64,000 bases of DNA from a virus: positions 4,814 through 68,813 of the IMG/VR virus record IMGVR_UViG_3300022911_000003, one strand, 5' to 3'. This document shows, one piece after another, positions 4,531-20,834 of this stretch (the stretch's first letter is position 1; each line of letters starts with the position of its first letter). Both the position numbers and the translations under genes were made by a program. Below the pieces are notes generated by a model. It was not told the origin of the DNA, ran no database searches, and was given only the letters and a program-made list of their open reading frames with translations.

Positions 4531-4853
4531 CGGACCATTACTGGCGGGAATGATGAGGTGCCTTCCATAAGGCTTGCGCCGGCATTCGCACCATCGTACT
4601 TTTCCTTGAGGCTCAGATACAACGCCACCTCATCAGTGTCAGGCTCGCCATCCCTTAGCTTTCGGTAGAAGACGACACGGACCCGTTTGGGATCTATACC
4701 GTTCTGGTTCTCTGTAATGCAGATGGTCAGGTCTTCGACGGCGCACCCGGCACGACCTGCCACGTCCTGAAAGTCCTTGGTGATCTGGTCCAGGGTCAGT
4801 TTTATGCTATCCCAATTGACTTGATTGAACTCGACGAGTTTCTTGCCGATCAT
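4527..4853 (-). CDS. Hypothetical protein
   Basis: AAGGAG RBS; last gene of the leftward operon. Confidence 0.65.
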   Translation of the reverse strand: MIGKKLVEFNQVNWDSIKLTLDQITKDFQDVAGRAGCAVEDLTICITENQNGIDPKRVRVVFYRKLRDGEPDTDEVALYLSLKEKYDGANAGASLMEGTSSFPPVMVR

Positions 4854-10553: not shown

Positions 10554-10942
10554 TGTCTTGGTGGTTCCAGAGCAAGGCGAGGGCCGTGAAGATATTGCGG
10601 TTCGTCGACCACAGTGAAGTCGGCCCCGACCCACGCCATCATTTCAGCCAACTCTCGCTCTTGGCCCGCAGTCAGGTCTCTGCGGGTTTTCAACTCCCGC
10701 CAGACATGCTGGACGGCCTGCTTCATGTAGTCAGCGGTATAGAACGGCGAGAAACGATAGAACTGAATGTTACGGCCGACGCGAGCCTTGGGCGGGGCAC
10801 AGTGATTCCAGATCATCCTGAAGGTATAAAACAGGTGTCTGGTTTCCATGTCACGTGGAGCGTGCATGTTGTCGTGCCTGTCCTTCCAGCGCCACGTCAA
10901 CGCCGGAACCGATGGGTTTTGTGTCAGAACTGGCTGCATCAT
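10550..10942 (-). CDS. Hypothetical protein
   Basis: ATGA overlaps. Confidence 0.6.
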   Translation of the reverse strand: MMQPVLTQNPSVPALTWRWKDRHDNMHAPRDMETRHLFYTFRMIWNHCAPPKARVGRNIQFYRFSPFYTADYMKQAVQHVWRELKTRRDLTAGQERELAEMMAWVGADFTVVDEPQYLHGPRLALEPPRQ

Positions 10943-11595
10943 CTCGCCCTCATGGCCTGAACCAAATACGGGTCAGTCTCGGCCTGACCCAGATACCAGC
11001 GCACGTAATCGGCCGGCAGGTCTTTGATGGCCATGCCCTTGTGCTTGCCGAACTGCATCACGGTCGGGATGCGGGCTTCCTCGGACATTTGGTATAGGTC
11101 GGCCATGTTGGCGGGATGCAGAACCTCGATCAGTTTTTGCAGCACGAACGCCGTCGCAAGGATGTCTGTCTCGACGCTGTGCGCACTGGCGAAGAATTCC
11201 TTGAACCGGGCCACGTCGAGGTAAGCGACCAACGCCATCAGTTTGTGGCTGTCGAGATCGGGCCATACCTTGCGGGCCAGACAGAGCGTGTCGATGCGCT
11301 TGCAGTCCGGCTTTCCGACAGCGGCCCAGTCAAAGTCCACATTCTGGCCAATCATGTATTCGTGGCCGAAACTGGACATAACGAACGGCTCCCGGTCCGC
11401 AACGTCCTGCTCGGTAATGCCATGAACCGACATGGCGCCGAATTCGATGGGCTTCGTGGGCTTGTAGCGCAATGACCACAGACCGCCGAATGACCATGCT
11501 TCGTCGAACATGACCAACATCTGGCCGTACTCGACGACGGATGGTTCGACAATACCCGTGGTCTCGGTGTCGATCAGGAGTGCTGTTTCGGTCAT
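10939..11595 (-). CDS. DEDDh 3'-5' exonuclease (ExoX-like)
   Basis: LIDTETTG, QNVDFD, IDTL and AHSVETD motifs; C-terminal MQFGKHKG...LPADYVRW domain. Confidence 0.88.
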   Translation of the reverse strand: MTETALLIDTETTGIVEPSVVEYGQMLVMFDEAWSFGGLWSLRYKPTKPIEFGAMSVHGITEQDVADREPFVMSSFGHEYMIGQNVDFDWAAVGKPDCKRIDTLCLARKVWPDLDSHKLMALVAYLDVARFKEFFASAHSVETDILATAFVLQKLIEVLHPANMADLYQMSEEARIPTVMQFGKHKGMAIKDLPADYVRWYLGQAETDPYLVQAMRAR

Positions 11596-12953
11596 TGGTC
11601 ATCCTTCACTTCAACAAAGAACGGGTCGCCGGGGAAGGCATTGGCCCACAACTCCGTGTCGCGAATCGCGGCGTAGAGTTCGTGATCCTGGTCGATGGCG
11701 ATGGCGGCTTCCCACGGCCCGATCTTCTCGTCCCTGAGCCACGTCAGAAGCTGCACGATCTCGTCCCAAGATTTTGCCGCACGGGCACGTTTGATGGCGT
11801 TGGCGATAAGTCCTGCGCTGGGGGCTTGAGTGCCTTCCTGCGAAGTTTGCGGCCCGTCGGCAGGCCCTTCCGGTTCGATAGCTGCTGCCCGATCCGCGTC
11901 AGAGATAGACTGGTCAGAAGGGGTGTCGAGCCGGGGCTCAATAGGGGTGCCGGTTGCAGCATTATTTTCCGGCTCAGATCGTTGCTCAGGCTTGGGTTCG
12001 ACCCGGCCGGTCGGCGGCGGTGAAACAGGTTCTCGCCCAGCGGAATTCCCTTGTTGCTGCTCAGGTTCGCGGCGGCGGTGAGCGTCTTCCCGCCCGGCCT
12101 GTTCTTGGCTAGTACGGTTCGTTGGCGCCTCGGGAATATCGTCAGCCGGATTGTGTGTCAGGGCGACTGTGGTCACGACAGGAACGGCGGCCTGTACCTT
12201 CGTGAAATCGTAGAACGACTCCTCGTTAGCCACGACCGTTTTCAGTTCTTCGAACGGCAGCGTCTTGGACAGGGAGTGAATCGCGGTCTTGATCGACATT
12301 TCGTCTTCGTACTTCGACCAGACGTTGTCTGACTTCGACGCGGCCTTGGCCTTCGCGATCTTCTTCTTCGACAGGGCGCGCATGTGCTGCACGCCGTCCT
12401 TGGTTTCGACGATGCAGTATGACGCGATGATCTTCGGGTTGTCTTCGTTCCGAATTTCCAGAGATGGCTTGTGCTTGATCGAGGGCGCATCGCCGCCCGT
12501 GATGTCATAAAACTCCCCGTCGTAAATCACATCGGTGATGATGCGCTGGACCCGGCCGGTGCGGTACAGGATTTCGACGATGCCCTTGACCATGACCATG
12601 GCCTGGACTTTCTTGATCCACTGCTCCCGGCCGTTGGCGTCCTTGACCTTGGTGCTGTAGATCACCAGCGCGGCCTGCTTGCCATCGGGATTGACGCGGT
12701 ACGTCGCCAACTGGACACATGCCTGAAACAGAGAGGTGCGATCCGCGTTGAGCAGTTCCGGGTCTTTCAGCAGGGCGTTCTTCACGACGCTGACGAATCG
12801 CTTGGCGACATCCATGCCTTGAAGCAGGCCGGCGAGTTCACCCAACCTGTTGTCGAGTTGGCCGATGAACTGCGTCATGGCACCGTGCCTTGTTTCAGTC
12901 GGTGCCGCTGTGGCAGCCTGAGTCGCGACTTGGTTCTTGCCTGGTTCGGCCAT
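11592..12953 (-). CDS. recT: RecT-family recombinase with long low-complexity C-terminal extension
   Basis: RTSLFQACVQLA...NPDGKQAAL and WSKYEDEMSIKTAIH RecT motifs. Confidence 0.85.
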   Translation of the reverse strand: MAEPGKNQVATQAATAAPTETRHGAMTQFIGQLDNRLGELAGLLQGMDVAKRFVSVVKNALLKDPELLNADRTSLFQACVQLATYRVNPDGKQAALVIYSTKVKDANGREQWIKKVQAMVMVKGIVEILYRTGRVQRIITDVIYDGEFYDITGGDAPSIKHKPSLEIRNEDNPKIIASYCIVETKDGVQHMRALSKKKIAKAKAASKSDNVWSKYEDEMSIKTAIHSLSKTLPFEELKTVVANEESFYDFTKVQAAVPVVTTVALTHNPADDIPEAPTNRTSQEQAGREDAHRRREPEQQQGNSAGREPVSPPPTGRVEPKPEQRSEPENNAATGTPIEPRLDTPSDQSISDADRAAAIEPEGPADGPQTSQEGTQAPSAGLIANAIKRARAAKSWDEIVQLLTWLRDEKIGPWEAAIAIDQDHELYAAIRDTELWANAFPGDPFFVEVKDDQ

Positions 12954-14022: not shown

Positions 14023-14421
14023 ATGGAAGGAAAATATCACATGCAAACCGCGACCAGACTCCCGACCATCGTCGGCGATCCAACTGCTCACTCTATCGCA
14101 ATGTTCCAGAAGCGTGTCTTTCAGCGCCTGACCAAAGGTCTTGAAGGTGAAGACTTCAAGCGCGAACTAACTCTGGCAAGCCAAACCGAACAAAGAATGC
14201 GTCCTCCCATGGGACGCCTGATTGGTCACGGCCAGCAACTCGCAGCGATTCGCGAGCGAAAAGCAGCCGAAGCAATGCCTACCACCTCTGACTCTGTCGA
14301 TTCGCGTCAGGTGAAGCGCCGCGTCGAACTGAAGGCCCGCAAGAAAACCGCGGCGGCCGAGCGGAAGGCAGCCATCGCCAATCGTCTTCGTCAGACCCGG
14401 AAGAAAACCGGGACAGCATGA
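14023..14421 (+). CDS. Basic hypothetical protein
   Basis: Packed in the operon; Lys/Arg-rich C-terminus. Confidence 0.55.
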   Translation: MEGKYHMQTATRLPTIVGDPTAHSIAMFQKRVFQRLTKGLEGEDFKRELTLASQTEQRMRPPMGRLIGHGQQLAAIRERKAAEAMPTTSDSVDSRQVKRRVELKARKKTAAAERKAAIANRLRQTRKKTGTA

Positions 14422-14858
14422 CGGATCGAAAGCCTGACCTGCAATTGTTCCTTGGCGGCAAAGTCGTCGCCAAGGGACGGGCACGCACCGCAACGCGCAA
14501 GCGATCCGCTGCCAAAGGTGGTGGGACGTGGATCGCTCACATCACCCCTCCTGCCACTGAGAACTACGAGAAGGCGATCAAGGCCGAGGTTCTGAGAATT
14601 CTGCGTGCCCCACTATCTGGTCCACTCTGGGTCAAGGTCATCTTCTACATTGCCCCCCCGAGGTCCTGGTCCAAGAAAGCGCAGGCCGCAGCGGTCGGAA
14701 CCTACGTCGTTTCTAAGCCAGACCTTGATAACTATGTCAAAATATTCGACGGCCTCAACGAGGTGGCGTGGCACGACGATAGCCAGATCGTGAAACTTCA
14801 AGCCGTCAAAAAGTACAGCGAGGCGCCCGGAATGGCTCTCCAGATATTCCGTTTATAA
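14418..14858 (+). CDS. rusA: RusA-family Holliday junction resolvase
   Basis: KPDLDNYVK...WHDDSQIV motif. Confidence 0.9.
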   Translation: MTDRKPDLQLFLGGKVVAKGRARTATRKRSAAKGGGTWIAHITPPATENYEKAIKAEVLRILRAPLSGPLWVKVIFYIAPPRSWSKKAQAAAVGTYVVSKPDLDNYVKIFDGLNEVAWHDDSQIVKLQAVKKYSEAPGMALQIFRL

Positions 14859-14871
14859 CAAGGGGATTTCC

Positions 14872-16095
14872 TTGACACATTCTGATTGCAGCCTCCACCT
14901 CGGAGACTGTCGTGAAGTCATGGCTGCGATGCCGGACAACTCTGTAGACTCGATCGTCTGTGATCCGCCGTATGAAATCGACTTCATGGGCAAAGGTTGG
15001 GACAGGTCTGGCATAGCCTATGATCCTGTGGTCTGGCAGCAATGTCTCAGAGTTCTGAGGCCTGGTGGGCACATGGTCGCGGCGTCTCACGTCAAGACGT
15101 ATCACCGCATGGCAATAGCGATCGAGGATTCCGGGTTTGAGATCCGCGACATGATACCTTGGATCTATTCCAGTGGTTTCCCGAAGAACCATGACGCGGA
15201 GCGCGCCGTGGCTCAGAAGCAATGCGTGCTGCCCGGCCGGCACTTCTCACGCCAGGTTCCGGAAGGTGCAAAGTTCATGGAAGGCGACCACATTTGCCAC
15301 GAGACTGCGGACAGTCTCATATGGAAAGGCTTTGGCACAGCCCTGAAACCGGCCAACGAACCATTCTGTCTGGCCCGCAAGCCACTTGATGGCAGCGTGG
15401 CTGAGAACATCCTGAAATGGGGCGTTGGGGTGCTGAATATCGACGACTGCAGGGTTGGGGATGACGAGGCAGAGCGCGGACGCTGGCCGGCCAACATCAT
15501 TACTGACGGTTCTGAACCGATCACTAGCCAGTTTCCAGAGGTCGCTGCGGGCGGGGGTTTGACTGGTAACGAGCCATCTCGTCCCATGGGCGGCCATGTC
15601 TACGGTGACATGAATGGGCGGCACACGTGGCAGTCCTATGATGACTTCGGATCAGCGGCGCGGTTCTTCTACTGTGCCAAGTCATCTACAGAGGATCGTG
15701 AACACGGCCTTGAAATGCTGGAACACCAGTTGCCGGCTGCTGCGCAGTTCAGGCCGAACCACTTGGAAAAGGCCAATGATGGCGAGGCGGGAAACCCATA
15801 TGGACGGTACAGGAAGCGCAAAAATATCCATCCGACCGTCAAGCCAGTGGGCCTGATGCGATACCTGTGCCGGCTGATCACGCCACGAGGCGGAACGGTA
15901 CTGGACCCTTTTATGGGATCTGGCAGCACGGGCAAGGCAGCGAGGCACGAGATCTTCAAATTCATCGGCATCGACATCACGCCTGAATATTATGAAATCG
16001 CCACCAGACGCCTGAGTGCGGTCGTGGCTCAAATGGATCTATTCCGGCACGTCAAACCCCAAGCCCAGCAACCCAGCATGTTCGGTGACGAATGA
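14872..16095 (+). CDS. Beta-class N6-A/N4-C DNA methyltransferase
   Basis: DPPY (motif IV), HPTVKP and VLDPFMGSGST (motif I). Confidence 0.9.
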   Translation: MTHSDCSLHLGDCREVMAAMPDNSVDSIVCDPPYEIDFMGKGWDRSGIAYDPVVWQQCLRVLRPGGHMVAASHVKTYHRMAIAIEDSGFEIRDMIPWIYSSGFPKNHDAERAVAQKQCVLPGRHFSRQVPEGAKFMEGDHICHETADSLIWKGFGTALKPANEPFCLARKPLDGSVAENILKWGVGVLNIDDCRVGDDEAERGRWPANIITDGSEPITSQFPEVAAGGGLTGNEPSRPMGGHVYGDMNGRHTWQSYDDFGSAARFFYCAKSSTEDREHGLEMLEHQLPAAAQFRPNHLEKANDGEAGNPYGRYRKRKNIHPTVKPVGLMRYLCRLITPRGGTVLDPFMGSGSTGKAARHEIFKFIGIDITPEYYEIATRRLSAVVAQMDLFRHVKPQAQQPSMFGDE

Positions 16096-17402
16096 GTGAG
16101 GCAGAAAATGACCTGGATCTATGTCCCATCAACCTCATCAGTCTGTGTACCGGAGGAGGCGGACTCGATCTCGGATTCGAGTTGGCGGTTCCAGGTGCTC
16201 GAAGCGTCGTGCTGGTCGAGAGGGAAACCTACGCGATCGCGCAACTGGTATCAGCTATGGAAGCGGGGCTTATGGCTCCAGCGCCTGTGTGGAGCGATGT
16301 GTTCACCTTCCGCGGCCGAGACTGGCGTGGCGCAGTGGACGGCGTCATTGGTGGAATCCCGTGCCAACCACACAGTCTCGCTGGCAAGCGACTCGGCGAA
16401 GAAGACGAACGCGATCTCTGGTCCGATGCAAGGCGAATCATCGTCCAGTCCGGGGCGTGGTTCTGCCTCATTGAAAACGTCCGCGGCATGGTCTCATCGG
16501 GCGGACTCGAGCGAGTTTGGCGAGACCTTCGACGGCTTGGTTTCACGGTTGAGGTTGGACTGTTCACGGCGGAGGAAGTCGGCGCCAGTCACGAGCGGGA
16601 GCGAGTCTTCATCCTCGCAGTGGCGAACCCCGACCGACGACTCGAACCGCGGCGGAGCGCAGTCCGGCCTGAAGCGGCTTCAGGCCGGACATACAATGAA
16701 CCTGCAAGATCAAGTGGTGGACTTTCGTGTGGAGTCGGCCAGGCCGACTCCAGCGACACGGGATTACAAGGGCGCGAACTCAGCGGATCACTTGGAGAAC
16801 GGCACGGGTCGGAAGCATCTGGATCAACTGCCAAACTTCGTCCAGCACATTTGGTCGACGCCCAGGGCGTCGGACGGGGAGAAGGGCAGTCCGAATCAGG
16901 ATTTCGGAGCAGGCGGGACACCTTTGCCGGCGCAAGCAGTGCAATGGCAGACGCCGAAGGTGGCGCCGGGGGCCTATACGAGGGACCGCGGCCAGAAAGG
17001 TCAGGAACGCCTGTCCGTCGAGGGACAGGCGCGGAGCGAGACTTGGTCGACACCGTCGGTAGCGGACGTGATGGGGGGCAGGCTGTCTCGGGACCGAGAC
17101 AGGTCGGACGAACTGTTGATGAACGGTCAGGCGGCTTCCCTATCTTCCCACCTGGACCAAATGACTTATCCGGTTGGCGGGATATCCTCGACCGAGCGCC
17201 GGAGTTTGAACCCAGTTTTCGTCGAGTATCTGATGGGTTGGCCTCTCGGATGGACATTGCTCGCGTGGACCGACTTAGGATGCTCGGCAACGGCGTTGTG
17301 CCACTTCAAGCAGCGTATGCGGTCAGAACTCTTGCGCATCGGCTTGCCGCCAGAGGCTCCGCTGGTGCAGCCAGACTTGTTCGGATGATGGACCATGACT
17401 GA
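16092..17402 (+). CDS. C5-cytosine DNA methyltransferase, alpha polypeptide (motifs I-VIII and X)
   Basis: LISLCTGGGGLDLG, GIPCQPHS, IENVRG, HERERVFI and RLRMLGNGVVP. Motif IX is absent from this frame. Confidence 0.88.
   Translation: MSEAENDLDLCPINLISLCTGGGGLDLGFELAVPGARSVVLVERETYAIAQLVSAMEAGLMAPAPVWSDVFTFRGRDWRGAVDGVIGGIPCQPHSLAGKRLGEEDERDLWSDARRIIVQSGAWFCLIENVRGMVSSGGLERVWRDLRRLGFTVEVGLFTAEEVGASHERERVFILAVANPDRRLEPRRSAVRPEAASGRTYNEPARSSGGLSCGVGQADSSDTGLQGRELSGSLGERHGSEASGSTAKLRPAHLVDAQGVGRGEGQSESGFRSRRDTFAGASSAMADAEGGAGGLYEGPRPERSGTPVRRGTGAERDLVDTVGSGRDGGQAVSGPRQVGRTVDERSGGFPIFPPGPNDLSGWRDILDRAPEFEPSFRRVSDGLASRMDIARVDRLRMLGNGVVPLQAAYAVRTLAHRLAARGSAGAARLVRMMDHD
16108..17388 (+). CDS. C5 methyltransferase beta polypeptide nested in the +1 frame (TRD-like repeats and motif IX)
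   Basis: 1.3 kb stop-free overlapping frame with GAGG RBS; five WxTP repeats; RRSLNPVFVEYLMGWPLGWT is motif IX-like. Confidence 0.75.
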   Translation: MTWIYVPSTSSVCVPEEADSISDSSWRFQVLEASCWSRGKPTRSRNWYQLWKRGLWLQRLCGAMCSPSAAETGVAQWTASLVESRANHTVSLASDSAKKTNAISGPMQGESSSSPGRGSASLKTSAAWSHRADSSEFGETFDGLVSRLRLDCSRRRKSAPVTSGSESSSSQWRTPTDDSNRGGAQSGLKRLQAGHTMNLQDQVVDFRVESARPTPATRDYKGANSADHLENGTGRKHLDQLPNFVQHIWSTPRASDGEKGSPNQDFGAGGTPLPAQAVQWQTPKVAPGAYTRDRGQKGQERLSVEGQARSETWSTPSVADVMGGRLSRDRDRSDELLMNGQAASLSSHLDQMTYPVGGISSTERRSLNPVFVEYLMGWPLGWTLLAWTDLGCSATALCHFKQRMRSELLRIGLPPEAPLVQPDLFG

Positions 17403-18765
17403 AACATCAAATCTTGGCAGCGAGCAGGCCCTTCTCGGCACGCTGCTGTACGAGAACGAGGCGCTTGAACTGATCCAGAACGGCTTAAAGCCGGAACACT
17501 TCGCAGAGCCATTCCACCAGAGACTGTTCGCAACGATCCTGGCATGGCGCGATGAGAGGCCGGCCAGGTTGGCGAACCCAACCCTGTTGGCGAAGAAGTT
17601 TGCCGAGGATCAGGCCTACCTCGACTTGGGCGGCATAACTTATTTCGCCGATCTGGTCGACCGCGCCCCTCCTATGGCCAACATCGGCCAGTACGCCCGC
17701 GACATTCTTAACCTGTGGCAGTTGCGCAGGCTCGAGTCGGCCGCGAGCAGGGCGACAGTATTTGATGATGCTCAGGAGGCTATGTCGTTCCTGAGAAAAG
17801 CCGTGGACAGCATCGACGAGGCCAGCCCCGAGGAAGATGACCTTGAGGCGTCCGACACCATTGCTGCGAAGTTTATGGCCCAAATGGGAGACATGGCGAG
17901 GTCTGGGAAGACTCTGGGTCTCAGGTCTGGACTGGCGTCATTCGATGATGTGGTGGGCGGCCTTGTCCCGTCGGACCTGATTATTCTCGCAGGCACGGCG
18001 TCCATGGGCAAGAGTCTGGCCGGCCGATCACTGATCTACAAGGCCGCTGCGGCAAATCCGGACAAACTGTTCCTGATCTACAGCTTGGAAATGCCGAAGT
18101 GGCAGTTGATGGCCCGGACCATCTCGGAACTGGCGTACTGGAAAGGCCAGAAGATTCCGTACCGAAACTACAAGTCTCCGTCGGTCCGGATGCAGGAGGA
18201 CCTGCTGCCGTTTCAGGACATGGTTCCGTCCAATGTGCTGATATCGGAGCGCCGCCGCCTGTCGATGGAGGATATCGAGCGCAGCGTCAGGCGGACAGTC
18301 CGAACCAAAGGCCAGGTCGGGGCATATCTCGTCGACCACATCCATGAACTCAGGGTCGACGACAAAGCCTTCGATCCCTACGGCGAGGCGGCGGGACGGG
18401 CCAAGGTGCTGAATGCTGAACTGGGACTGACGGGTATTTTGCTGAGCCAGTTGAGCCGGGCGGTCCAGGGCCGGGACGGAAAGCGACCCTTGATCTCCGA
18501 CCTGCGACAGTCCGGGTCTTTGGAGCAGAAGGCCGACGTCGTCATGTTCCCATACCGAGAATGGCAGGTCCTGAAAGACGAAAAGCCCCGAAAGGAATCG
18601 GCGCAGCAGGACTGGGAAAACAAGATGGCGGCGGCGAAGAACAAGTTGACCATGATCTATGCCAAGGTCAGGTCCGGAGCGCCCGAGGACCGTGACATGT
18701 GGTGCAACCCGGCCTTCGACACTTTCGCCGATCAAGCCCCGGCCGACACGATCTGGGAGGACTGA
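17395..18765 (+). CDS. dnaB: DnaB-like replicative helicase
   Basis: EQALLGTLL, LIILAGTASMGKS, YSLEMP, LSQLSRAV and DLRQSGSLEQKADVV. Confidence 0.92.
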   Translation: MTETSNLGSEQALLGTLLYENEALELIQNGLKPEHFAEPFHQRLFATILAWRDERPARLANPTLLAKKFAEDQAYLDLGGITYFADLVDRAPPMANIGQYARDILNLWQLRRLESAASRATVFDDAQEAMSFLRKAVDSIDEASPEEDDLEASDTIAAKFMAQMGDMARSGKTLGLRSGLASFDDVVGGLVPSDLIILAGTASMGKSLAGRSLIYKAAAANPDKLFLIYSLEMPKWQLMARTISELAYWKGQKIPYRNYKSPSVRMQEDLLPFQDMVPSNVLISERRRLSMEDIERSVRRTVRTKGQVGAYLVDHIHELRVDDKAFDPYGEAAGRAKVLNAELGLTGILLSQLSRAVQGRDGKRPLISDLRQSGSLEQKADVVMFPYREWQVLKDEKPRKESAQQDWENKMAAAKNKLTMIYAKVRSGAPEDRDMWCNPAFDTFADQAPADTIWED

Positions 18766-19673: not shown

Positions 19674-20040
19674 GCGAAACCTGAGCGACGTCGAAAATCG
19701 GGATGAGATTCGGCGCGAGGCCCGTCTTGTCCTGCTGGCCCAGACTCCAGGCACTAGGTCCGAGATCAAGGAGATCGTGTTTCGAATCCTGAACCACTAC
19801 GAAAGCTTTGATCGACGTTCGATCGAGTCCAAGGCGATGCTGGTCGACGACTGGCTCGAGTCGTTGGCGGAGTGGCCGGCCGACGTTCTGCGGGGCATGG
19901 CAAAGGCTTGGCGCGAGAATCCGAAGTCGGAATATTTTCCGACCGTGGGCAAGGTCATCGACGAAATCCCGGCGCAGTTCAAGGATCGCTACAAGGCGAT
20001 GTATTCCGCGCAGCAGGTCGCTAAGCAGGAGTGGTTCTAA
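19555..20040 (+). CDS. Hypothetical protein (helicase loader/inhibitor-like position)
   Basis: DWLESLAEWPADVL...W...YFPTVG pattern; follows the initiator; start uncertain. Confidence 0.5.
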   Translation: MNQASTSLTVRPPESEITKAQCELLTSPISFLNKGIDALERNLSDVENRDEIRREARLVLLAQTPGTRSEIKEIVFRILNHYESFDRRSIESKAMLVDDWLESLAEWPADVLRGMAKAWRENPKSEYFPTVGKVIDEIPAQFKDRYKAMYSAQQVAKQEWF

Positions 20041-20834
20041 TGGCTGAAACTACAGGAATTTCGTGGACTGATTCTACAATCAACTTCTGGATAGGGTGCA
20101 CAAAAGTTGGACCTGGGTGTCAAAATTGCTACGCCGAGGCGATGAATCACAGGTTCGGCGGCGGCAACTGGGGTGCAGGAGCGCCGCGTAAGCGCACGGC
20201 TCAGGCCACGCGCAACAACCTGCTCAAGTGGCAGCGCGAGGCGGATAAGACCGGGGTCCGTCGAAAGGTGTTCATCAACTCCATGTCGGACTTCTGGGAC
20301 AACGAAGTGCCGATAGAATGGCGCGAGGAAGACGCCGTGGTCATGGCGGCGTGCGACGGTCTGGATCTGCAACTCGTGACGAAGCGGATTGGAAATGTGC
20401 CGAAACTCCTGCCAAGGGCGTGGTCGTCACATTGGCCAGCACATGTTTGGCAGATGATCACGGTCTGCAATCACGATGAATATTTGCGGGACACTCCCAA
20501 ATTGGCACCCGTTATCGACATGGGCTGCAAAGTCACAGGCCTGTCTGCCGAGCCGCTTCTTGGTCCAATCAGGGTAGGCGCCTATGCGGATATGCTTAAA
20601 TGGGTAATCGTCGGCGGTGAGTCTGGAAGCTTCGCGCGGCGCTACAATATCGAATGGGCCATGGATATCGCTGATAATTGCAGCCAATATGGCATCGCAT
20701 TTTTCCATAAGCAACTCGGCTCAAGACCTGTCGGCGTTGATGGCCGGCCGATCTACACCAAGGATAGGTCTGGAACGCATAGCGGTGATTGGCCTAAGAA
20801 TTTGTGCCGGCAAGAATTCCCGGTGGCCGCATGA
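20040..20834 (+). CDS. DUF5131 / phage Gp37Gp68 family protein
   Basis: TGISWTDSTINFWIGCTKVGPGCQNCYA, VFINSMSD and WVIVGGESG. Confidence 0.88.
   Translation: MAETTGISWTDSTINFWIGCTKVGPGCQNCYAEAMNHRFGGGNWGAGAPRKRTAQATRNNLLKWQREADKTGVRRKVFINSMSDFWDNEVPIEWREEDAVVMAACDGLDLQLVTKRIGNVPKLLPRAWSSHWPAHVWQMITVCNHDEYLRDTPKLAPVIDMGCKVTGLSAEPLLGPIRVGAYADMLKWVIVGGESGSFARRYNIEWAMDIADNCSQYGIAFFHKQLGSRPVGVDGRPIYTKDRSGTHSGDWPKNLCRQEFPVAA

Follow-up and report, generated by a model that had tools for sequence, protein, structure and literature searches.

The locus described here raises the question of whether a single stretch of phage DNA, open in two reading frames over its whole length, could supply both chains of one cytosine methyltransferase. 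It lies in a stretch of 64,000 nucleotides (positions 4,814 to 68,813) of the IMG/VR virus record IMGVR_UViG_3300022911_000003, which totals 70,956 bases; we refer to this stretch as the window and use its own positions throughout. We designate the frame 0 open-reading frame (ORF) alpha and the frame +1 ORF beta. Beta (16108-17388) is nested within alpha (16092-17402) on the same strand, giving an overlap of ~1.28 kb in a region of 59-63% G+C. The beta frame is open from 16096, where a GTG directly follows the TGA of the upstream gene, through to 17388, which makes 430 amino acids (aa), and beta residues are numbered from 16096. A preliminary description of this DNA had reported a 436 aa frame 0 with a split motif set, a +1 frame free of stops for ~1290 nt with a GAGG before the ATG at 16108, and a beta chain that spans nearly the whole gene and approaches the length of alpha; the ORF list, the motif positions and the sequence agree with all of this (426-430 vs. 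436 aa). The observation is therefore real, one ~1.3-kb phage gene is held open in two overlapping frames. We consider it likely that this one segment encodes, in two frames and along its whole length, a two-subunit C5 DNA cytosine methyltransferase, and we infer that both frames are translated, that the chains form a heterodimer and that this has methyltransferase activity.

Alpha carries motifs I-VIII and motif X in one chain (Table 1) and is without a recognition region and a motif IX of its own. The Pfam family PF00145 matches alpha residues 14-181 only, which hold motifs I-VIII (profile positions 2-165, 93.2 bits), and alpha aligns to HaeIII residues 1-160. AlphaFold2 (AF2) models alpha with moderate to high confidence over residues 12-180 and confidently over residues 400-436, and gives the middle, residues 183-353, a predicted local distance difference test score (pLDDT) of 26-37. 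This middle of ~170 residues is predicted to be an unstructured linker; its sequence and length vary among relatives, it never contains a stop, and alignment fails across it. Immediately 3′ of alpha motif VIII, homology to single-chain enzymes moves into the +1 frame. There beta, which matches no family in a Pfam scan, carries a target-recognition-like region of modules that start with WxTP (at 16621, 16852, 16945 and 17044) or, at 16741, with a degenerate RPTP, followed by a motif IX-like segment of the pattern R-R-x-L-N-P-x-F-x-E-x-L-M-G-W-P-x-G-W. Beta had been described as ending in this segment, which is indeed present, but it is not the end of the chain, as 43 residues follow. The segment overlies the conserved alpha residues PE.EP.FRRV, and the stretch 17197-17256 is therefore doubly constrained.

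Table 1 Coordinates of the dual-frame gene, its parts, its substitution-phase blocks and its neighbours (positions in the window)
Feature	Position	Strand	Content or basis
Alpha ORF	16092..17402	+	Frame 0, 436 aa, ATG start; program ORF list
Beta ORF	16108..17388	+	Frame +1, 426 aa from ATG 16108; program ORF list
Start region	16092..16111	+	Alpha ATG 16092, GAGG 16098-16101, beta ATG 16108; sequence
Alpha motif I, NLISLCTGGGGLDLG, AdoMet-binding loop	16131..16175	+	Translation; aligns to HaeIII 1-20; invariant columns
Alpha motif IV, GIPCQPHS, catalytic cysteine	16353..16376	+	Pattern search; columns invariant in 32 homologues
Alpha motif VI, IENV	16470..16481	+	Pattern search and invariant columns
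Alpha motif VIII, HERERVFILAV	16590..16622	+	Homologue alignment, single-chain comparison
Alpha linker (predicted), low complexity (G+R+S+A = 55%)	16638..17141	+	Alignment, AF2, composition
Alpha C-terminal conserved region, FPPGP..W...PE.EP.FRRV.DGLASR.D..RVDRLRMLGNGVVP...	17142..17399	+	Alpha-phase substitutions, invariant columns
Alpha motif X, LGNGVVP	17283-17306	+	Within C-terminal region; invariant in 32 homologues
Beta N-terminal region, overprinted on alpha catalytic domain	16108..16620	+	Stop depletion, alpha codon choice, AF2
Beta WxTP modules, target-recognition-like region	16621..17196	+	Pattern search, beta-phase substitutions, DillTech15 gp66 alignment
Beta motif IX-like segment, RRSLNPVFVEYLMGWPLGWT	17197..17256	+	Frame +1; low diversity at all three codon positions
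Beta C-terminal tail and stop, LLAWTD..CS.T.L..FKQRMRS.L..LGLP.EAP..Q..LFG	17257..17388	+	Conserved in beta alignment
Beta-phase block	16107-16151		Conserved beta N-terminus MW(L/I)YVP
Alpha-phase block	16152-16646		Catalytic domain
Beta-phase block	16741-16965		WxTP modules
Alpha-phase block	17142-17186		FPPGP..W
Dual block, all three positions low	17187-17231		Motif IX over PE.EP.FRRV
Alpha-phase block	17277-17321		Motif X
RecT (PF03837) and RNase T-like exonuclease	10939-12953	-	
RusA (PF05866)	14418-14858		
N6/N4 DNA methyltransferase (PF01555)	14872-16095		Upstream gene
DnaB helicase	17395-18765		
DUF5131	20031-20834		

Taken together, the pieces in the two frames are homologous to the parts of a single-chain enzyme. 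Searched with tblastn, phage records yielded actinophage genes, annotated as DNA methyltransferase, that span the beta modules, motif IX and alpha motif X unbroken. PF00145 matches the N-termini of two of the proteins, Mycobacterium phage DillTech15 gp66 (447 aa) and Arthrobacter phage MidnightRain gp84 (484 aa). Both are homologous to the window gene over all its parts and share its motif order, with catalytic motifs, xPTPxAxDxxG modules, F.EWMMGWP.GW (IX) and GNGVVP (X); they differ in using one frame, without the beta-type N-terminal region and without the alpha-type linker. A chimera that runs from alpha (16092-16619) through beta (16621-17256) back to alpha (17259-17399), with a single X at each break, is collinear with DillTech15 gp66 (35% identity) and MidnightRain gp84 (28%), and the PF00145 match widens in it from profile positions 2-165 to 2-316 of 324 (98.2 vs. 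93.2 bits). Similarly, the profile phrog_1008 (DNA methyltransferase) takes up beta residues 72-383 at its positions 33-279 and alpha residues 379-420 at 286-323. Against HaeIII, a profile of 30 chimeras reached 63.6 bits and the alpha profile 59.6, and from the chimera profile came a second alignment, insignificant by itself, which pairs RRSLNPLFVEWLMGWPPGWT...LGNGVVP with HaeIII RRLTVRECARVQGFPDDF...IGNAVP (motifs IX and X); it is in this second alignment only (-1.3 bits, individually insignificant) that alpha LGNGVVP is aligned with HaeIII IGNAVP. Two chimera alignments built from stored fragments were discarded, one being misaligned and the other having put alpha C-termini on the motif IX columns. 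These comparisons indicate that the family derives from a single-chain enzyme in which the part from the recognition region through motif IX moved to the +1 frame.

The same collinearity might be read in another way, with one chain made through two programmed frameshifts, +1 near 16620 after motif VIII and -1 near 17258 after motif IX, as this would recreate an actinophage-type single chain from the alpha-beta-alpha order, collinear with its relatives and with a full-length Pfam match. We regard such a double shift as very unlikely: it offers no reason why the first 175 codons of beta and the 170 of the alpha middle should be open, yet they are in ~90% of loci, no in-frame X_XXY_YYZ heptamer occurs at either junction in the window, and two efficient shifts in one gene would be unprecedented.

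The two-chain layout is conserved well beyond the window. Alpha has >2392 homologues, mostly at 97% coverage, which bear the name DNA cytosine methyltransferase and whose sources are mainly Rhizobiales and a Synechococcus phage, whilst the 524 homologues of beta (mostly 99% coverage, 40-55% identity) are all unnamed or hypothetical, and beta residues 176-430 alone match 3892 clusters at 50% identity. A Pfam scan of the ten longest beta-like matches gave no PF00145. From six genome loci and 80 virus loci that were fetched, 85 could be analysed, and nearly all of these (40-60% identity) have motifs IV, VI and X in one frame, f, with WxTP and motif IX in f+1, the recognition domain and motif IX being outside the catalytic polypeptide. 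The preliminary description had named a +1 frame broken by stops in homologues as the observation that would tell against it; by strict criteria, both ORFs are open and co-extensive in 77 of the 85 loci (~90%). The exceptions (L056, L061, L078, L052, L073, L044, L065, L084 and L071) resemble decayed or rearranged copies. In L056 beta is shortened to 144 aa and its start reads MRLYVP, and in L061 and L078 other frames now hold motifs IX and X; these three may be decaying copies. The number of WxTP modules runs from 0 (L066, L070) to 6 (L051, L067) across loci L008-L087, and the length of the alpha linker varies in step with it, a pattern that suggests the modules are gained and lost as units.

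Both frames are depleted of stops. The expected number was taken from synonymous shuffles of the selected frame in 54 related loci, and over the catalytic part ~2-3 stops were expected in the +1 frame and none was seen, the single stop counted per locus in this frame being the junction TGA. The beta N-terminal region has 0 stops in 73 loci vs. 1.79 expected, and the alpha frame over the middle has 0 stops in 50/50 loci vs. 3.7 expected, whereas the third frame matches its shuffles (4.0 stops observed vs. 5.0 expected, and 6.7 vs. 6.0). Among 74 loci chosen for having both frames open, the median longest open stretch is 1.00 of the gene in frame 0, 0.98 in +1 and 0.25 in +2; for the antisense frames it is 0.29-0.39, yet these reach 0.98-1.00 in a few loci. 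As the third and antisense frames carry the expected stops, the depletion is confined to frames 0 and +1.

The frame under selection can also be followed along the gene. In 74 non-redundant loci aligned codon-wise, where the most variable codon position shows the frame that is read, blocks of alpha phase and beta phase alternate from one end of the gene to the other (Table 1), with the N-terminus MW(L/I)YVP of the beta family kept through beta-synonymous changes. The blocks are interleaved, and to read all of them one chain would have to shift frame at least four times. Neither the beta-phase selection on the beta start codon and first residues, nor the alpha-phase block at 17142-17186, upstream of motif IX, is as expected for a chain made by two shifts. 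Codon choice in alpha points the same way as the blocks. The alpha codons GAG-AGG-GAA at 16218-16226, which 71-74 of the 74 loci share, keep beta R42-G43-K44, and AGG is elsewhere the rarest arginine codon in these genes; for the alpha leucine at 16245 only CTG or TTG is used, never CTC or CTT, which are commoner, and beta W51 is thereby kept in 74/74; GAT at 16296 (70/70) keeps beta M68; GAG 16551, GGA 16557 and GCG 16569 keep beta R153, D155 and R159; and over the tail the fixed GCG 17319, GCA 17367 and CTT 17376 keep beta R, Q and L. The +2 frame served as the control for synonymous-site conservation; flanking genes were dropped from this role, as the neighbours vary among loci, the N6 methyltransferase or DnaB being common to only 6 and 11 loci. 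Substitution phase and codon choice, as read from these aligned genes, show selection on both frames.

These data bear directly on the simplest alternative, in which a single frame is translated and the other stays open as a by-product of composition and codon bias in G+C-rich DNA. At 59-63% G+C spurious long ORFs do occur, e.g. the antisense ORF at 16589..17290. Against a by-product stand the +2 and antisense frames, which carry the stops that shuffling predicts, and the single-frame relatives, which at 63-67% G+C have 13 stops in +1 (13 each in DillTech15 gp66 and MidnightRain gp84, at 67% and 63% respectively); substitution phase also switches between frames, and rare codons are fixed that keep residues of the other frame. 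The comparative data largely refute this explanation, which we find scarcely credible.

A structure prediction of the alpha-beta heterodimer, proposed in the preliminary description, was run with full alpha and beta residues 170-430 on custom alignments, and passed its controls: the complex scored 0.86 in three runs, the best control 0.00. A mark of 0.86 is reached by 58/80 solved complexes and 2/110 mismatched pairs, a scale that is rough here, where custom alignments were used. Confident contacts link alpha residues 22-60, 160-167 and 351-416 with beta residues 342-418, thus the motif I and motif X side of alpha with motif IX and the tail of beta. As the recognition region of beta is poorly modelled, it is chiefly on motif IX and the tail that the predicted interface depends. 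The model supports binding between alpha and beta.

This prediction helps to weigh a further alternative, that beta is translated as an independent overprinted protein, DNA-binding or regulatory, with alpha acting alone or inactive. Its N-terminal invariant residues and confident small helical fold without a known match would suit such a protein, as would the short family members with 0 or 1 WxTP module. The middle and motif IX of beta are, on the other side, homologous to phrog_1008 and to the interior of single-chain C5 methyltransferases, alpha would be left without any recognition region and motif IX, and the prediction that beta binds the alpha C-terminal region holds up against its controls. 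An independent beta is, in our view, unlikely.

AF2 models beta confidently only at about residues 20-90 (16153-16365), with a pLDDT of 87-96 at residues 20-70; motif IX has moderate confidence and the module region a pLDDT <50. A fold search with the beta model, effectively covering residues 18-100 only, matched no solved fold (Z ≤3.6), and an ESM Atlas search with the N-terminal region returned only viral hypothetical proteins. An internal start at beta M68 was considered and rejected, the GGAG upstream being too close and not conserved. One could go further and propose that dual coding is obligate along the full length of the gene, that the ~170 N-terminal residues of beta, having arisen by overprinting of the catalytic domain, now form a folded domain with its own function, and that module number sets or multiplies specificity. 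Signs of this would be the invariant R-G-K, W and M kept through synonymous codons of alpha, the pLDDT of 87-96 over ~50 residues and the lack of a known fold; we put this forward tentatively and think it doubtful.

Several observations weigh against the two-subunit enzyme. The loci are related by kinship, and their counts are thus not independent. The beta piece adds only 5 bits to the Pfam match of the chimera, and the beta motif IX segment, compared with motif IX of solved enzymes, scores -1.3 bits for the second domain, which is individually insignificant. In the predicted complex the beta partner has a pLDDT of 43, with the module region poorly modelled. Identity between distant pairs in the beta N-terminal region is 0.485 vs. 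0.324 in shuffles, and 0.426 vs. 0.299 in the +2 control; as the excess is only slightly above that control, selection there acts on openness and a limited number of residues and not on the whole sequence, and most of this region may be a spacer. There are also natural single-ORF fusions among the database matches (P0244, P0308, P0352, P0325 and P0104), which may be insertions or deletions, sequencing errors or real variants. In three of the fusions the alpha N-terminus gives way to the beta frame, at differing points, and P0104 begins in the beta frame (MWLYVP) and continues in the alpha frame. The five members bearing PF00145 are fusions of the alpha N-terminus to beta and no canonical single chains. 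With these points set beside the layout, the selection on two frames and the predicted binding, the two-chain methyltransferase interpretation first proposed for this locus is supported.

How would such an enzyme be made and assembled? Alpha would be the large domain, with motifs I-VIII, the ~170-residue linker and a C-terminal part with motif X, the linker being the beta recognition region read out of frame. Beta would be the small domain, with the WxTP recognition region, motif IX and the tail, its first ~170 residues being the alpha catalytic domain read out of frame. Between the shared start and its functional part each frame would have to be open, and both would therefore be stop-free throughout. 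The chains would join through the alpha C-terminal region and the motif IX and tail of beta.

Across the family both chains would initiate at one ribosome landing site. The start consensus is NTG-A-ATG-TGG-CTC-TAC-GTC-CC, the exact NTGAATG is found in 56/85 loci (GTG 33, ATG 15, TTG 8) and a Shine-Dalgarno-like 4-mer lies upstream of the start in 69/74; this consensus and the upstream 4-mer place the alpha NTG and the beta ATG 4 nt apart behind one ribosome binding site, the beta start codon being usually the stronger. The window is atypical, its starts lie 16 nt apart and beta has its own GAGG, 6 nt before its ATG, whereas the family usually has 4 nt and one Shine-Dalgarno sequence. The alpha ATG shares bases with the stop codon that ends the N6/N4 methyltransferase gene upstream (ATGA), and in the window alpha would be translated by coupling to that stop and beta from its own GAGG. 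The upstream TGA shares the frame of beta, which opens at the next codon, and readthrough of this TGA in the window would fuse the N6/N4 methyltransferase to beta. Neighbours differ at other loci, and this arrangement of the upstream TGA is not family-wide.

On the downstream side, the DnaB gene begins, with its ATG, 7 nt past the beta stop (17386-17388) and runs across the alpha stop (17400-17402), and termination of either chain could couple to DnaB translation. The flanking genes (Table 1) are typical of a temperate-phage recombination and replication module, and the dual-coding gene lies within this early/replication module. The antisense ORF at 16589-17290 (233 aa, minus strand) covers the beta module region and probably arises as a side effect of the double constraint that acts on the plus strand. 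In the source annotation, the window's own stored protein P0121 (426 aa) is beta (16108-17385), and no protein identical to the window alpha was found among the alpha homologue matches. Standard annotation had been expected to miss beta; one chain was missed, but it is apparently alpha, the catalytic chain, that went unrecorded, whilst beta seems to have been entered as a hypothetical protein.

If both chains are made, the gene is a complete 1.3-kb same-strand overlap that stays open in ~90% of 85 phage and prophage loci, and M.EcoHK31I, a single case from 1995, would join a widespread way of building a methyltransferase. Annotation would then systematically drop one subunit, and the methylation or anti-restriction capacity of phages inferred from annotation would be wrong for the dual-frame family. 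As its single-frame ancestors are known, the family would also model the refolding of a gene into two frames, with the selected parts mappable in each, and would offer naturally split enzymes for the engineering of targeted methylation.

Literature searches found no description of this family or of family-wide dual coding of C5 methyltransferases, and no longer conserved same-strand overlap described for phages. The nearest precedent, already cited in the preliminary description and as stated there, is M.EcoHK31I (E. coli HK31, YGGCCR; Lee, Kam and Shaw 1995, as described in the papers cited below), in the published accounts a proven two-chain C5 methyltransferase whose alpha holds motifs I-VIII, X and the recognition domain, and whose small beta, encoded in another frame within the alpha gene, holds motif IX only (PMC2836561, PMC3404938). 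The window gene resembles it in that alpha holds motifs I-VIII as well as X, with the beta ORF nested in the alpha gene in a different frame. As far as those accounts describe M.EcoHK31I, the window gene differs in that beta is about as long as alpha, starts beside the alpha start and has a recognition-like region, an overprinted N-terminal region and a tail, with an unstructured linker (predicted) in alpha instead. The proposal of an M.EcoHK31I-like split may hold for the motif IX-like segment in beta; beta also has the whole WxTP region, and the split therefore runs along the boundary of the large and the small domain and not as in M.EcoHK31I. In M.AquI (CYCGRG), a two-subunit C5 methyltransferase, the split comes after motif VIII and beta holds motifs IX and X (PMC3404938); as here, it is a natural split in the variable region after motif VIII, and the two M.AquI chains reconstitute one enzyme, but in the window motif X stays in alpha and the genes overlap fully, and PMC3404938 names no full-length overlap for M.AquI. 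Fragments of M.SssI complement best if the break falls after motif VIII and before the recognition domain (PMC3404938), the very boundary used in the window gene. Long same-strand overprinted genes are known from viruses and bacteria (review PMC8227390; Pseudomonas PMC8850804), and like them the window gene has two proteins per DNA stretch, each frame constraining the synonymous sites of the other. Unlike them, the overlap is complete over ~1.28 kb, the functional parts are interleaved and both products apparently belong to one enzyme. The family differs from what is known in that the overlap is full-length, that the recognition region lies in beta, that beta has an overprinted N-terminal region with invariant residues, and in its size.

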